DNA from: an uncultured Candidatus Saccharibacteria bacterium
Lineage (GTDB): Bacteria; Patescibacteriota; Saccharimonadia; Saccharimonadales; UBA4665
Assembly: GCA_964357905.1 (NCBI GenBank)
Contig: CAYHMQ010000003.1
Span: 26,855 to 90,854 of the forward strand
Length of the DNA stretch: 64,000 nucleotides
Direction of reading: 5' to 3'
The notes beneath the pieces were generated by a model. The model was not told where the DNA came from. It ran no database searches and was given only the letters and a program-made list of their open reading frames with translations. How positions within the stretch are numbered: position 1 is the first letter of the stretch; every line of letters begins with the position of its first letter. Below are positions 11,301 to 41,005 of the stretch, one piece after another. The translations under genes and the position numbers were made by a program.

Positions 11301-12416
11301 ATGTACGAATTCTCGTCTGAAGCCCCGATCCAGATGCGTGAGCAGCGCTATAGCCGCCTCTTTGACGGCGAATTAATGTACATTAACCCAAGTCAGGCTC
11401 AGGTGGACCTAGGTATGAGCGCTCTTGCTAGAACTACTAATCGCGCTGGTGCGCGTCCGCCAGAATTAAGCGAACACCTGGAGACACTGCCACTAATCAT
11501 TGATAATATTTTAGAGAGGCATGACCTTGATGCTTTTGGCTGGCCTCCCTACGAATTGGATGGCGGCTCCGCAAATGCACTCTTCGGTTTTGTAAGTCCA
11601 GAGGGTCAGGAAATTGTTACTGGCATCGTAGCCGATATATTTAGACAGTGGGAAATTACTCGAAGTCGTCATGGTTTACAGCCATTAGCAACTGAGGGCG
11701 ATAGTGATGCGCGCTGGCTGGTAGTTGAAACAGCCGCTGCCGTTATGTATTGTGCGGCCAATTCATCAAACTTCAACTTGATTAAGAACCGTTCTGACAG
11801 AGAGAGTATAGCAAAGATCATAACTTGCTGGGGGCCTAAGTTCGCCGAAAAGTGGTTCGATGGCACCATATTGAGTAACTGGGCAGCTCAAAATAACATG
11901 ACAGAAGAAGAACTTGAACATTGGCGCGCAACTTTTAGCCCATCGACCCTCAAACATCTTGCCGACACTAACACGAGCGACCCATTGGGTGCGCTGGAAA
12001 AAATTAAGCACCATCTCGAAGTCACCTTAACCGACCAAAATATTGCCAAACATTTGGGCTGGAGCCGGACTCAAGTGTCAGAGACATTTAGCGCCAGCGA
12101 AAGAATGAAGTTTGCAGTACACAATCGAGCCAACCCGATAGGCGCCCTCAAACAAGTCAAGGATCACTTAGAAATGACCCTCACGGATGAGAGTTTAGCT
12201 CAATACCTGGGTTGGGAAGAGGCTAAGGTCAGGCAAGTTTTTACAGCTTACACTCGTAAATGCTTGGCAATCTCATACCGTAACGATCCTCTGAGTGCCT
12301 GCAAAGCCTGGGCGAGTGGCAAAATTAAGATAACTGCTACAAACGATTCGACGCGGGACAACAAGCTGTCGGGCAACGGTTATACCAAATTAGACGATTA
12401 TATGGTTGCGGTCTAG
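11301..12416 (+). CDS. hypothetical protein with tandem 51-aa helix-turn-helix-like repeats
   Basis: 371-aa ORF in a divergent orientation to rpoB. The C-terminal half carries two full repeats and one partial repeat. No family recognised. Confidence 0.7.
11979..12350 (+). repeat. in-frame 153-nt (51-aa) tandem repeat, two full units plus a partial third
   Basis: Unit 1 is [37 protein letters not shown] and unit 2 is [37 protein letters not shown]. Unit 3 starts [10 protein letters not shown]. Units start at 11979, 12132 and 12285. Confidence 0.8.
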
Positions 12417-13009
12417 GTCTGCTTGGGCGGGCTGTTGATAACGTCGTCGACAATGCCGTACTTCTTGGCGTCTTCGGCGGTTAGCCACTTGTCACGTTCC
12501 ATGTCTTCATGGATCTTCTTGACCGTTTGGCCGGTGTTTTTGGCCATGATTTCTTCGAGTAGCTTCTTGACTCTTAGGCTTTCGCGCAAATCGATTTCCT
12601 GGTCGGTAACCTTGCCGTGGGTGCCAGATGAGGGTTGGTGAATCATGACTGTCGAGTTAGGCAGCGTAAAGCGCTTGCCCTTGGTGCCACTGCTGAGCAA
12701 GAAGGCGGCGGCGGAAGCTTGTACGCCAATGCCGACCGTCTGGATATCATTGCCGACATACTGCATAGTGTCATAAATGGCCAGGGCGTCATAAACACTG
12801 CCGCCAGGACTATTAATGTAGAAAAAGATATCCTTCTTGGCATCCTCAGCCTGCAAGAACAGCAACTGCGCAACAACTATGTTCGCACTGGCCACGTTGA
12901 CGTCGCTGCCCAGGAAGATAATTCGGTCCTTGAGCAAACGGCTATAGATGTCATAAGCTCGCTCGTAACGGCCTTCGCTCTCGATAACGGTTGGGATTAG
13001 TACACTCAT
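12413..13009 (-). CDS. clpP: ATP-dependent Clp protease proteolytic subunit
   Basis: 198-aa ORF containing YINSPGGSV, the catalytic Ser context [11 protein letters not shown], and MIHQPS. Confidence 0.95.
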
Positions 13010-13016
13010 GGGGTTC

Positions 13017-13045
13017 AGTATAAGAAATTAGCACTCTCTAGTCAA
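13017..13045 (-). promoter_or_regulatory. clpP promoter TTGACT-17-TATACT, with the -10 ending 7 nt before the ATG (leaderless type)
   Basis: The minus strand reads TTGACTAGAGAGTGCTAATTTCTTATACTGAACCCCATG. No SD is present. Confidence 0.55.
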
Positions 13046-13054
13046 GAGTGCTAA
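13028..13054 (-). promoter_or_regulatory. CIRCE inverted repeat (HrcA-type operator), perfect match
   Basis: TTAGCACTC-TCTAGTCAA-GAGTGCTAA matches the consensus TTAGCACTC-N9-GAGTGCTAA. The -35 hexamer sits in the 9-nt spacer. The element also overlaps the last codons of the upstream ORF. Confidence 0.8.
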
Positions 13055-13936
13055 AAAGCCGCTTCTAGCGTGCCTGGTTCTGTCTTCTGGACTCATGACC
13101 ATCCGTCTAGAGTACCCGCCATTCATACCAGTAATGAAAGATACGTCGCCGTAACCGGCGTATATTTTACCGGTAGGTATCCACCCGTCGTCCGCAATAC
13201 AGCCCCCGTCGTCCGGCGCAAGAGAGATATCCCACACATAGGTTTTCCTATCAATAACGCCTGTAGTCTCTGGCTCAGGGTTGGTGCTACGCCATCGACT
13301 TGCTAGTACTGCCCCTGCAAATAGGTCTGCCGGCCACACATAAGGATGCTCTTTCCTAACCATGTCGAGAGCTTCAAGTTGGAATACGACTTTGTTTGGA
13401 TCAAAATTTCTCTCGTCCCTCAGCCTTGGCCCCACTCGATTCACATCATACCCTGTTTCCATTGCCACGAAACGGACTGGCCTTTCAGGATGTTCCGAGC
13501 TGAACTGACATAGCAGTCTTGGATCCCATTGTCTGAGGTCTCTCCAAAAATTTCTTTCCATATAACGATATGGTCTTTTTTCTCTTTTGGGACCAGCGTA
13601 ATCCCAAGCCCCTACAACTTCTTCATGGGTCAAATCGTAGTGAGGCACAGCCTGCAGAATCACAGGATCCGCATCTGTTGAGTATAACCCTGCGTTGATG
13701 GCCTCTATTACGCCTTTGCTCTCATCAATCCATTCTTCTGCCATGTCAGGCAACTTACCCTCAGGAACTATTGCGAGTTCACTTCCTTCAGACTCAGAGC
13801 GACCGGCTATGATGTTTTCGGCAATTCCGGTGTATAATCCAGCCGTTTCAGCTTCTATCGTTGATAGGAGCATGTCCTTTGTGACGATAGATTGTTCGCC
13901 GGATGTTCGACTAGGAGACGTTCCAAAACTACCCAT
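13028..13936 (-). CDS. hypothetical protein (orphan)
   Basis: The open frame runs to 13981 (317 aa). The ATG at 13936 (MGSFG..., 302 aa) has TATTAT 7 nt upstream, whereas 13981 has no promoter or SD. No family recognised. Confidence 0.6.
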   Translation of the reverse strand: MGSFGTSPSRTSGEQSIVTKDMLLSTIEAETAGLYTGIAENIIAGRSESEGSELAIVPEGKLPDMAEEWIDESKGVIEAINAGLYSTDADPVILQAVPHYDLTHEEVVGAWDYAGPKREKRPYRYMERNFWRDLRQWDPRLLCQFSSEHPERPVRFVAMETGYDVNRVGPRLRDERNFDPNKVVFQLEALDMVRKEHPYVWPADLFAGAVLASRWRSTNPEPETTGVIDRKTYVWDISLAPDDGGCIADDGWIPTGKIYAGYGDVSFITGMNGGYSRRMVMSPEDRTRHARSGFLALLTREC

Positions 13937-13992
13937 AGCCACAATAATACTGTGCTCGCATGAAATTGCAAAACTAGCCATAGCGCCAAAAA

Positions 13993-37412: not shown

Positions 37413-38426
37413 CTATTGATTAATTGTGACTGTGTCATTGCTAAGCTCTTTGGACAATTGGTTAGCTTCCAATGCTACGGCATTACGGCTGGCAACCAAC
37501 GCGTTGTACTGGCTAATCAGACTTCGTAGATCGGCAACCTCAACATTATATTCGCTAACAAGCCCGTTATAGCTAGTCACGCCGGCGTTGTAGCTTCTGA
37601 AGTCGCCAGCGGCTTTTAGCTCGTTGAGGGTGATCTTCTGGTCGTCGATTATAGCTTGCCGGGTCTTGAGATCAGCTTCTGAGGCGTCGATTTGCTGCTT
37701 GAGATCGGACAGTTTGATGTCGGCTTGAGCAACAATTGTCTGCCGCGAAGTAAACTCTGCTTGATATTGAGCCGCAAAAGCAGCCACTTGAGCCCGATTA
37801 GTAAAGTATCGCTTGTAGTATTGCTCTAGACTGCTCGGCAAGCTGGCTATTTCGGTGGCGAAGATGGAATGCATTTCATTCACCAAGTCATTCGGCTCTG
37901 ACTTCTTGTAGGCGTCTATGGTGTCAAGGATGCGCTGGTCATTCAGCTCATGGCGATAATAATCCATCAGCATAGCATCGACTTTTGACCTGTCGGAACT
38001 ATTGAGTCGGTCATAGGCACCGTGCAGCATCTCATGCGCCGCAGTGACCTGCTCAACGCCATTAAGGCGCGGGTCGGTCACCTTCATCAGGAAGATGCCA
38101 GCTTGATCACTATGATAGCAACCAATTACAATCGTCTGTTCATGCTTGCCGCCACCTTTTAGGCACTGCTTGGCAAAGCTAGCCTTGTCTTGTATCTCGG
38201 GAGAATTAACATAGAAGACCTTACGCGCAAAGTCCGTCATGGTATCTTCAGTCGCCAATTGAGCCACTGGTGCTGGAGCTTGATACTGGCGTAGGCGCCA
38301 CCAATCAATAACATCCTGACGGTTTACAAGGACAAATCCAATCAAGGCAGTCCAAACCAGAAGCACCAAAAAGCTTCTTAATCGGTGATGGGGTCGAGGT
38401 GAAAGACTATTCGTTGGTTGTTGCAT
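37413..38426 (-). CDS. membrane-anchored hypothetical protein with an HExxH motif and a C-terminal coiled coil
   Basis: 337 aa with one N-terminal TM segment (LVLLVWTALIGFVLV). Contains AAHEMLHGAY and a heptad-rich C-terminus. Overlaps the clpC 3-prime end by 20 nt. Confidence 0.55.
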   Translation of the reverse strand: MQQPTNSLSPRPHHRLRSFLVLLVWTALIGFVLVNRQDVIDWWRLRQYQAPAPVAQLATEDTMTDFARKVFYVNSPEIQDKASFAKQCLKGGGKHEQTIVIGCYHSDQAGIFLMKVTDPRLNGVEQVTAAHEMLHGAYDRLNSSDRSKVDAMLMDYYRHELNDQRILDTIDAYKKSEPNDLVNEMHSIFATEIASLPSSLEQYYKRYFTNRAQVAAFAAQYQAEFTSRQTIVAQADIKLSDLKQQIDASEADLKTRQAIIDDQKITLNELKAAGDFRSYNAGVTSYNGLVSEYNVEVADLRSLISQYNALVASRNAVALEANQLSKELSNDTVTINQ

Positions 38427-40884
38427 AAGACAGGGCGCCGCGCTTGGAGGCTACCTGAATAATATCACCTTTTTCGTACTTCTCATCGAGCAAATCAAGA
38501 GCCAGGTGATCTTCTATAGTGTCCTGAATCAGCCGTCTCAGCGGTCGCACGCCATTGCGAGCATCATAGCCATGATCCAGCAGGTACTGCTTGGCGCTAG
38601 TGCTTAGTTGCAGACTCAGGCCTTTACGGTGCAGCCGAGCCTTAAGTTCGTCTATCTGCAGATCGATTATACGGAAGATATCCTTCTGGGTTAGGGCTCG
38701 GAAAACGATAGTTTTATCTATGCGGTTCAATAACTCTGGCCGAAGCATTTTCTTGAGCTCATCCTGGACGCGAGCCTTGTTGGATTCGTGCATAGCATCA
38801 AGGTCTTTAAGGTCACTGGTCTTAGAGGCATGGAAGCCCAGGCTAGCTTCTTTTTGTAGCTTGTCAGCACCGATGTTGCTGGTCATGATGACAATGGTAT
38901 TGGTGAAGTCGATACGACGCCCCTTGGCATCAGTCAGATAACCGTCTTCCAGCATCTGAAGCATCATATTGAAAACGTCAGGGTGAGCCTTTTCGATCTC
39001 GTCGAACAGAACCAAGCTATAGGGTTGGCGGCGAATCTTGTCAGTTAGCTGGCCACCCTCTTCGTAACCGACGTAGCCAGCCGGTGCGCCAACGAGGCGC
39101 GAGACATTGTGATGCTCACCGAACTCTGACATATCAATCTTGACCAGAGCGTTTTCGCTGCCGAAGAACTCTCGTGCCAGCACACGAGCCAGCTCAGTCT
39201 TACCAACGCCGGTAGGGCCCAGGAACACAAACGAGCCAATCGGCCGCTTATCGCTGCCTATGCCGCTACGATTACGTCGCACGGCCTTGGCGACGGCTTC
39301 TACAGCCTCAGCTTGGCCAACTATGTACTTGCTTAGGGTCTTTTCGAGAGTTAGAAGATACTTGGCCTCGCTACGAATGACCTTCTTGACTGGAACGCCA
39401 GTCATACGGGCAACCACATCAGCCAAGTCTTCGCTGCTTACATTTAGTCGCTTGGATCGTTTGCTGCTAGCACGCAAGCTGGTCAGCTCTTCGTTGATCT
39501 GTGAGGCGCGGGTTTTGGCCTTGGCGGCTCTTTCGTAATCTTCGGCTTCAACGGCTTCCTCGATCTGAGTATTAACTAGCTTTAGCTCCTTCTGAAGAGC
39601 GCGAACTTCTGGGCTGGTTTTGCCCTTATCGACACGCAGATGAGCAGCAGTTTCGTCAATCAGATCGATAGCCTTGTCAGGCATAAATCTATCATTAATG
39701 TAGCGCTTGGCCAGGGTAACAGCATCTTCGAGGACTTCGTCACTAAGGTTAACACCATGGAACTTTTCATAATGGCCGCGCAGACCCTTGAGTATAGCCA
39801 AAGTCTCGCTGGGGTTGGTCTCAGGTACTTGGATAGGCTGGAAACGGCGCTCCAGTGCGGCGTCTTTCTCAATGTACTTAGTATACTCGGTGGTAGTGGT
39901 GGCTCCGATCAGTTGGATCTTACCGCGGGCTAGTGCCGGCTTGAGAATGTTGCCAGCGTCCATCGCGCCCTCGGCCGCGCCAGCACCAACTATAAGGTGC
40001 AGCTCGTCGATGAAGACGATGGTGCGACTCTCCTTCTCGAGTTCGGCAATCACCTTCTTAAGGCGCTCTTCGAATTCACCACGGTACTTGGTGCCGGCGA
40101 TCATACCAGCCAGGTCTAGTGTGACAATCCTTTTATCAAGCAGGCTGTCAGGTACGTCTTCGGCAACAATACGTTGAGCTAGGCCTTCGACTATGGCAGT
40201 CTTGCCAACACCAGGCTCACCGATCAAAACAGGGTTGTTCTTGGTGCGACGGTTAAGAATCGTGATCACCCGGCGAATCTGATTATCGCGACCAACAACG
40301 GGGTCAAGTTTGCCCTGACGGGCTTCTAGAGTTAGGTCAGTGCTGAAGAAGTCGAGTGCTGTCTTCTTGCCCTTTTTGCCACGACGACTACCGTCGTTGC
40401 CGACTTCTTGCTCTTCGTACTGCTGGCGGCTTAGGAATTGCTCTAGCTCGCTAGTCAGGCCATCAACATTAATGTTCATATCTCGGAGTAGAATTGTTGC
40501 GCGAGCATTCTTCTGCGACAAAATACTGTGCAGTATATGCTCAGTGCCACAGTAATCTTGCGAATAATCTTGAGCAATGTCGTAGGCCATCTTGAGCGTC
40601 AGCTTGGCGGTTTCACTTAGCCCCTTAGCGCCAACATTAATGACCAAGGTCTTAGGCACTACATTGAGAGCGATGCGAGCACGATCCAGCGTTACGCCAG
40701 CGCCTTCTAGAACCTTAGAACCCATGCTGCCATCCTGAGCCAAAATGCCAAGCAGCAGATGCTCAGTACCCACATATGCACTGCCAAAACTGCGCGCAAT
40801 TGCATCGGCATGCTTGAGACTTTGCAGTGCGTTATTGGTTAAATGATTCAAGAATTCTTGGAAGTCAGGTGAATTAGGCATCAT
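38407..40884 (-). CDS. clpC: ATP-dependent Clp protease ATP-binding subunit ClpC
   Basis: 825 aa with Clp-N repeats ([10 protein letters not shown]), two Walker A motifs (GEPGVGKT and GPTGVGKT), and a UVR-like linker. Confidence 0.92.
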
Positions 40885-40948
40885 AGCTTGGTATGGCTCC
40901 TTTTTGCGGCGTAGTACGTCTTAATTATGCGACATTTTGCCTATAAAC

Positions 40949-40976
40949 ATAATAGCACTTGGCACTCGGTAGTCAA
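40949..40976 (-). promoter_or_regulatory. clpC promoter TTGACT-16-TATTAT overlapping CIRCE
   Basis: The minus strand reads TTGACTACCGAGTGCCAAGTGCTATTAT. A leader of about 58 nt with AAAGGAG follows before the ATG. Confidence 0.5.
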
Positions 40977-40985
40977 GAGTGCTAA
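40959..40985 (-). promoter_or_regulatory. CIRCE inverted repeat (one mismatch) upstream of clpC
   Basis: TTGGCACTC-GGTAGTCAA-GAGTGCTAA compared with TTAGCACTC-N9-GAGTGCTAA. It shares the 16-mer TAGTCAAGAGTGCTAA with the clpP element. Confidence 0.75.
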
Positions 40986-41005
40986 TTCAATCAGTCGTGC
41001 GGGGG

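Follow-up and report, generated by a model that had tools for sequence, protein, structure and literature searches.

The window, by which we mean the whole 64,000-nt stretch of DNA that was analysed, corresponds to C3:26855-90854 of a Saccharimonadales genome of 948,744 bp (0.95 Mb), which is assembled in 14 contigs and is 98.5% complete. Its minus strand carries clpP and a clpC-type Clp ATPase gene, each of them preceded by a CIRCE element, the operator motif of the HrcA repressor. The features concerned are as follows:

12413..13009, minus strand: clpP, 198 aa, monocistronic in this genome
13007..13009, minus strand: ATG of clpP, 7 nt after the -10 element and without a Shine-Dalgarno sequence
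13017..13022, minus strand: -10 element TATACT, 17 nt after the -35 element; a TAnnnT at 17-18 nt is kept in relatives
13040..13045, minus strand: -35 element TTGACT, occupying CIRCE spacer positions 1-6 right after the left arm
13028..13054, minus strand (palindromic; serves the minus-strand clpP promoter): CIRCE, matching 18/18 positions of the consensus TTAGCACTC-N9-GAGTGCTAA
13028..13981, minus strand: upstream lineage-restricted gene of unassigned function; a real gene that has homologues
38407..40884, minus strand: clpC-type Clp ATPase gene, 825 aa, with an LGF loop
40959..40985, minus strand: second CIRCE (clpC promoter), with 1 mismatch, TTGACT in its spacer and TATTAT 16 nt later

The earlier note on this DNA had described a perfect CIRCE embedded in a leaderless clpP promoter, and the anatomy that it gave proved exact to the base. 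The CIRCE is made up of TTAGCACTC at 13028-13036, the spacer TCTAGTCAA at 13037-13045, and GAGTGCTAA at 13046-13054. Read along the minus strand, the region runs TTAGCACTC-TTGACTAGA-GAGTGCTAA-TTTCT-TATACT-GAACCCC-ATG, and it contains each of the promoter elements that had been claimed for the clpP strand: the TTGACT within the CIRCE spacer (13045-13040), the TATACT serving as -10 element 17 nt downstream of the -35 (13022-13017), and the clpP ATG 7 nt past the -10 (13009-13007). The encoded protein matched the Pfam family CLP_protease (E=3.4e-74) as well as the NCBIfam model PRK00277 (287 bits, over the cut-off), and its N-terminus aligned with those of relatives from residue 1-2. By promoter scan, TTGACT/TATACT was the top-ranked sigma-70-like site of the region, with 10/12 matches. 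The CIRCE overlaps the -35 element and the promoter spacer of this site, which is the sole good promoter before clpP. The predicted transcription start falls at or beside the A of the ATG, and the clpP mRNA would in that case be leaderless.

The CIRCE also overlaps the upstream ORF on the same strand, and the overlap with its last eight codons was likewise as originally described; the stop codon lies in the overlap too. Homologues of this ORF were found in metagenome assemblies at 48-55% identity; a collection of 5.8 billion proteins yielded four matches, counting the protein from the window itself. The homologues terminate at ...RRMVMK, and the copy in this genome continues for 19 more codons (13031-13087), stopping at the TAA that closes the CIRCE. 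Because this 19-residue tail is unconserved read-on to the TAA, the overlap is a by-product, and we rejected the idea that it has a meaning of its own. In relatives (L083 and others) the gene directly upstream of the CIRCE-clpP unit is that for trigger factor (tig). The tig-clpP linkage is broken in this genome, where an unrelated rare gene has taken the place of tig, indicating that the operator-promoter travels with clpP. On the other side of clpP lies a convergent ORF (11301-12416, plus strand, 371 aa), for which weak helix-turn-helix matches to Sigma70_r3 and HTH_Crp_2 were obtained, both below the cut-offs.

We compared the number of CIRCE matches with that expected by chance. With up to three mismatches allowed, the window contains 2 matches compared to 0.03 expected and the whole genome contains 6 compared to 0.32 expected; the number of perfect matches expected in the genome is 1.4e-5. 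At exactly four mismatches we found three sites genome-wide compared to approximately 3.4 expected. This count is at chance level, and the four-mismatch sites are therefore considered noise. All six of the better sites are located on promoters of protein-quality-control genes, with the following number of mismatches to the consensus:

clpP: 0 mismatches
clpC: 1 mismatch
hrcA-(orf)-grpE: 1 mismatch
(orf)-dnaK...dnaJ: 2 mismatches
groES-groEL: 3 mismatches
ftsH: 3 mismatches

A genome scan for further copies of the element had been suggested in the earlier note, and groES, dnaK and clpC are among the genes that it brought to light. TTGACT stands immediately after the left arm in four of the six sites (clpP, clpC, hrcA and dnaK). 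The groES site is a variant in which the -10 element, TATATT, lies within the CIRCE spacer, with TTGACC positioned 17 nt upstream. Two small ORFs are found in CIRCE-controlled units (C1:258291-258665 and C1:259225-259602, of 124 and 125 aa), one situated between hrcA and grpE and the other between the CIRCE and dnaK; both of these may be further members of the regulon.

The clpC promoter is followed by a leader of approximately 75 nt that contains the motif AAGGAG, and among relatives a CIRCE was present upstream of clpC in all of the loci that had upstream DNA (29/29). No ClpX was found in this genome. This absence rules out ClpX as an additional partner of ClpP and leaves ClpC as the sole canonical ClpP partner found. 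The genome also encodes another AAA+ protein of the Clp/Hsp100-like kind (788 aa; C2:81133-83499, minus strand), which has an N-terminal membrane-spanning region instead of Clp_N repeats; its gene is without a CIRCE, and its start overlaps the gene upstream.

The site at ftsH (C1:250261-250324) is a degenerate CIRCE, TTGGCACTC-N9-GAGCGCTAG, with GAGCGC in its weaker right arm. It overlaps a TAGGCA-17-TATAAT promoter, the -10 element of which stops 7 nt short of the ATG. In 25 of 30 loci from relatives (L182-L211) this CIRCE is kept as TTrGCACTC-N9-GAsCGCTAG, and in every conserved case the right arm has the same replacement of T by C. The ftsH element resembles an HrcA site of lesser strength, and the gene behind it appears to be leaderless.

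To assess conservation at clpP, we used clpP loci from 29 relatives, which sample the genus itself, another 20 genera within its family, and 8 more families within the order; the clpP locus of a thirtieth relative sits at a contig edge and is outside this set. The core GCACTC-N9-GAGTGC was found 20-130 bp upstream of clpP in 29/29 of these loci with upstream DNA, representing at least nine families. When the loci are aligned, the CIRCE arms form invariant columns and the flanking DNA is unconserved. TTGAC is present within the spacer in 27 of the 29 clpP promoters, at spacer positions 1-5 in 19 of them and at positions 5-9 in the other 8. In the latter group the TAnnnT -10 element is also found 4 nt further downstream, such that the 17-18 nt spacing is retained. 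This joint 4-nt shift of the -35 and -10 elements argues strongly that the two hexamers make up a working promoter and, from sequence comparison, likewise strongly for selection that holds the promoter interlocked with the operator. The distance between promoter and start codon also falls into two classes. A gap of 7-9 nt between the -10 element and the ATG, which we call leaderless, is found in 18/29 genomes and is equivalent to the layout described here (7 nt and no Shine-Dalgarno sequence); 10/29 genomes have a leader of 21-30 nt that bears a clear Shine-Dalgarno sequence of the GGAGG type.

A gene for the cognate repressor, which the earlier note had proposed to look for, is present in the genome. 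It lies at C1:257630-258337, where it heads an hrcA-grpE unit that carries its own CIRCE. The protein scored 60.2 bits against PF01628 (cut-off 22), and its winged helix (residues 2-118) aligns to T. maritima HrcA (PDB 1STZ). It is 235 aa in length compared to 338 for 1STZ and about 340 for canonical HrcA, approximately 100 aa of the C-terminal region being missing, and its score of 175.5 bits against the NCBIfam equivalog TIGR00331 is just under the cut-off of 197.2. The winged-helix domain is conserved, including the SATIR..PHTSAGRIPTDKGYRFY segment. The short form of HrcA was found in 39/41 relatives and in 32/32 high-quality genomes, and is 70-96% identical across the order. Because the protein is shorter by approximately 100 aa and scores under the equivalog cut-off, its dimerisation and its sensing of stress may differ from those of canonical HrcA.

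We also considered the regulators known to control such genes elsewhere. A search for ctsR, which the earlier note had likewise called for, found no match to PF05848 in the genome, and no CtsR box (tandem heptad) was found near clpP or clpC; with neither gene nor box, CtsR is ruled out as the clp regulator. The genome contains a single sigma-70-family gene, identified by its Sigma70_r2 domain in the region C1:109930-110139. This being the sole member of the family in a genome that is 98.5% complete, there is no RpoH, and we exclude RpoH or another alternative sigma factor as the source of regulation. An operator of the ClgR type (CGC-N5-GCG) had no match at 13010-13110 or at 40885-41005, and a ClgR-like operator was accordingly rejected for both of the clp promoters. 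The regulatory and Clp repertoire of this genome is, overall, extremely reduced.

The extent of this arrangement outside the order was examined by a CIRCE census (up to two mismatches) in which 96 Patescibacteria, sampled evenly from outside the order, were set against 5 genomes of the order. The outside genomes had a median of 2 CIRCE per genome (range 0-5), whereas the 5 Saccharimonadales, this one included, had a median of 6 (range 4-8). A control with the reversed pattern gave zero matches. A CIRCE was located at most 1.5 kb upstream of clpP in 3/36 outside Patescibacteria (two with less than 0.7 kb of upstream DNA), compared to 3/4 further genomes of the order. In a control set of 76 clpP loci, 75 of them from outside Saccharibacteria, no CIRCE was found within 1.5 kb of clpP (0/76). 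The rarity of the association elsewhere makes the expansion to Clp genes essentially a trait of Saccharimonadales, with sporadic parallels in other lineages.

The exact motif TTAGCACTC-TTGAC-N4-GAGTGCTAA is found in public genomes mostly in Saccharibacteria, where the counts by target were 32 sites before dnaK, 28 before clpC-like genes, 27 before hrcA, and 8 before clpP. It is also found in Streptococcus mitis and Streptococcus oralis (before hrcA), in cyanobacteria (before groEL), and in Dehalococcoides, Fervidobacterium, and other CPR groups. These occurrences rule out the placement of a -35 element inside the CIRCE spacer as a feature unique to the lineage. Genes for Clp-type ATPases likewise follow a perfect CIRCE that has TTGAC in its spacer in a Fervidobacterium locus (L215, Thermotogota) and in a Spechtbacteria locus (L254, CPR), the ATPases being approximately 42% identical to the ClpC described here. 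Clp ATPases may thus have come under HrcA control more than once.

Several other explanations for the element before clpP need to be weighed. The simplest is that the CIRCE match is a chance palindrome, in favour of which there is nothing beyond the small size of the element. It is refuted by the counts in the window and in the genome, where a perfect match is expected only 1.4e-5 times, and by the presence of the element in 29/29 relatives; its probability is close to nil. One may also read the repeat mainly as an intrinsic terminator that serves the gene upstream (13028-13981, minus strand), with its likeness to CIRCE being secondary. The structure in this genome lends itself to such a reading, since the spacer lengthens the stem to 11 pairs (-15.2 kcal/mol), the stem is followed by TTTCTTAT, and the element is listed by a terminator scan. 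But a terminator does not account for the match at 18/18 consensus positions, for the presence of the element before clpP regardless of which gene lies upstream (tig in relatives), or for the occurrence of the same motif before hrcA, dnaK, clpC and groES, and the features specific to a terminator, the stem extension and the T-tract, are unconserved in relatives. We consider it extremely unlikely that termination is the main role of the repeat, which could nevertheless act secondarily as a terminator in this one genome.

The remaining alternatives accept the element as a CIRCE. CIRCE is known from B. subtilis and several other bacteria in a position downstream of the transcription start, and by this precedent the CIRCE before clpP could be functional with TTGACT/TATACT not being a promoter; transcription would then start further upstream, the CIRCE would act as a roadblock or RNA stability element in the 5' UTR, and the mRNA would not be leaderless. 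Several lines of evidence make this improbable. The -35 and -10 elements move jointly by 4 nt among relatives while keeping a spacing of 17-18 nt; relatives in which the gap is longer have a Shine-Dalgarno sequence, but none is found in this genome in the stretch from the CIRCE to the ATG; and upstream of the CIRCE the DNA codes for protein and is unconserved. A further potential concern is the HrcA protein itself, whose C-terminal region is short by approximately 100 aa and whose equivalog score is slightly below the cut-off. Some other regulator, and not the short HrcA, could bind the sites, or the short HrcA could have ceased to repress, leaving relic sites. The winged-helix domain is conserved, however, in a protein that is 70-96% identical across the order, hrcA bears a CIRCE of its own, and the operator arms are, unlike relics, invariant over at least nine families. 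We therefore judge loss or replacement of the repressor to be very unlikely.

Together with the observed anatomy, repressor gene and site distribution, and with the conservation and co-variation of the sites, these considerations make it highly probable that the element works as an operator for HrcA and is fused to a sigma-70-type promoter that serves clpP. What follows on HrcA binding, induction by stress, the point where transcription starts and the involvement of GroEL is proposed by analogy with the B. subtilis model. The 9-bp arms would position HrcA on both sides of the -35 element, and the right arm occupies the 17-nt promoter spacer in its first half. A dimer of HrcA on these arms would cover the -35 element and half of the promoter spacer, and so exclude RNA polymerase from the promoter. 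Repression of clpP by such promoter occlusion had been suggested in the earlier note, and the placement of the arms around the -35 element fits this suggestion. Upon heat or protein-folding stress HrcA would become inactive and the clpP promoter would fire. HrcA activity is lost in the B. subtilis model because unfolded proteins titrate GroEL away; we assume the same route of inactivation in Saccharimonadales. Transcription would then begin approximately 7 nt past the -10 element, at or beside the ATG, and the leaderless clpP mRNA would be translated. The same design is present at clpC, hrcA-grpE and dnaK-dnaJ, and variants of it at groESL and ftsH.

At the level of the regulon, the comparison with relatives supports the further proposal of the earlier note that Clp genes belong to the HrcA regulon, the sites at both clpP and clpC being kept order-wide. 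All of the checks suggested in that note that are open to computation gave favourable outcomes. One repressor very probably co-regulates the chaperones and ClpCP in Saccharimonadales, and FtsH is probably under that repressor as well. HrcA very probably holds here the place that CtsR, ClgR or sigma-32 holds elsewhere. A broader proposal is that the truncated HrcA of approximately 235 aa governs the entire proteostasis network (chaperones, ClpCP and FtsH) in Saccharimonadales as its one master regulator, acting at promoters of the lone sigma factor that have their -35 element in the operator spacer; we rate the chances for and against this proposal about equally. If it is true, the order would have a minimal, one-repressor stress response that replaces CtsR, ClgR or sigma-32 circuits, and the missing HrcA domain may mean that stress is sensed in a manner unlike that of the GroEL-titration model.

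Gene regulation is almost unstudied in the Saccharibacteria and other CPR bacteria, which live as ultrasmall epibionts and have very few transcription factors, and our literature search for HrcA in Saccharibacteria or CPR found nothing relevant. The six promoters described here constitute a concrete and conserved regulon that is easy to test. The prediction is that a protease arm (ClpCP and probably FtsH) and a chaperone arm would be induced together by way of one repressor. According to passages found of a transcriptome study of TM7x, clpP rises together with a gene for a Clp ATPase, named clpB in that study, and in these passages no TM7x chaperone genes are given alongside the two, a point against the proposal. 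The promoter-operator units, leaderless and leadered, are natural cassettes and represent possible stress-inducible expression tools for cultivable Saccharibacteria.

The system can be compared to several that are known. It is like the HrcA/CIRCE system of B. subtilis in the operator consensus and the repressor family, in the autoregulation of hrcA by a CIRCE at the head of hrcA-grpE, and in having groESL and dnaK in the regulon. It differs from the B. subtilis type in that the operator encloses the -35 element, rather than lying downstream of the transcription start, and in that the regulon adds clpP, clpC and probably ftsH. It differs also in its HrcA, which is 235 aa long as against about 340, and in that no second heat-shock regulator (CtsR or an alternative sigma factor) was found in this genome.

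Precedents exist for the inclusion of individual Clp and protease genes. The clpP gene of S. salivarius is reportedly regulated by both CtsR and HrcA (Chastanet and Msadek 2003). A CIRCE at the clpP promoter and the membership of ClpP in the HrcA regulon would be common to that species and to this genome. In S. salivarius CtsR is a co-regulator, whereas the genome analysed here has no ctsR gene or CtsR box, HrcA being apparently the sole regulator, and here clpC is a target too. In Lactobacillus gasseri, clpL is another Clp gene in the HrcA/CIRCE regulon. The HrcA regulon of Mollicutes includes dnaK, clpB and lon, and its set of sites is decaying in Spiroplasma. Mollicutes and Saccharimonadales both have reduced genomes with few transcription factors, and in both HrcA/CIRCE appears to have spread from chaperones to AAA+ proteases or disaggregases, which makes the regulon described here a parallel to an independent development in Mollicutes. 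The two differ in phylum and in targets (clpP, clpC and ftsH here, clpB and lon there), and the site set is conserved order-wide in Saccharimonadales as opposed to decaying in Spiroplasma.

The CtsR regulon of Firmicutes and the ClgR regulon of Actinobacteria follow a logic like that proposed here, with clpP and its ATPase gene placed under one stress-responsive transcription factor. They differ in both regulator and operator, since there is no ctsR, CtsR box or ClgR-like motif here. With the precedents of clpP in S. salivarius, of clpL, and of clpB and lon in hand, the finding amounts to order-wide new members of a known regulon and not to a new system. The comparative sequence data support an HrcA regulon that has been expanded lineage-wide in Saccharimonadales, in which a classical system would have been widened without recourse to a new mechanism.
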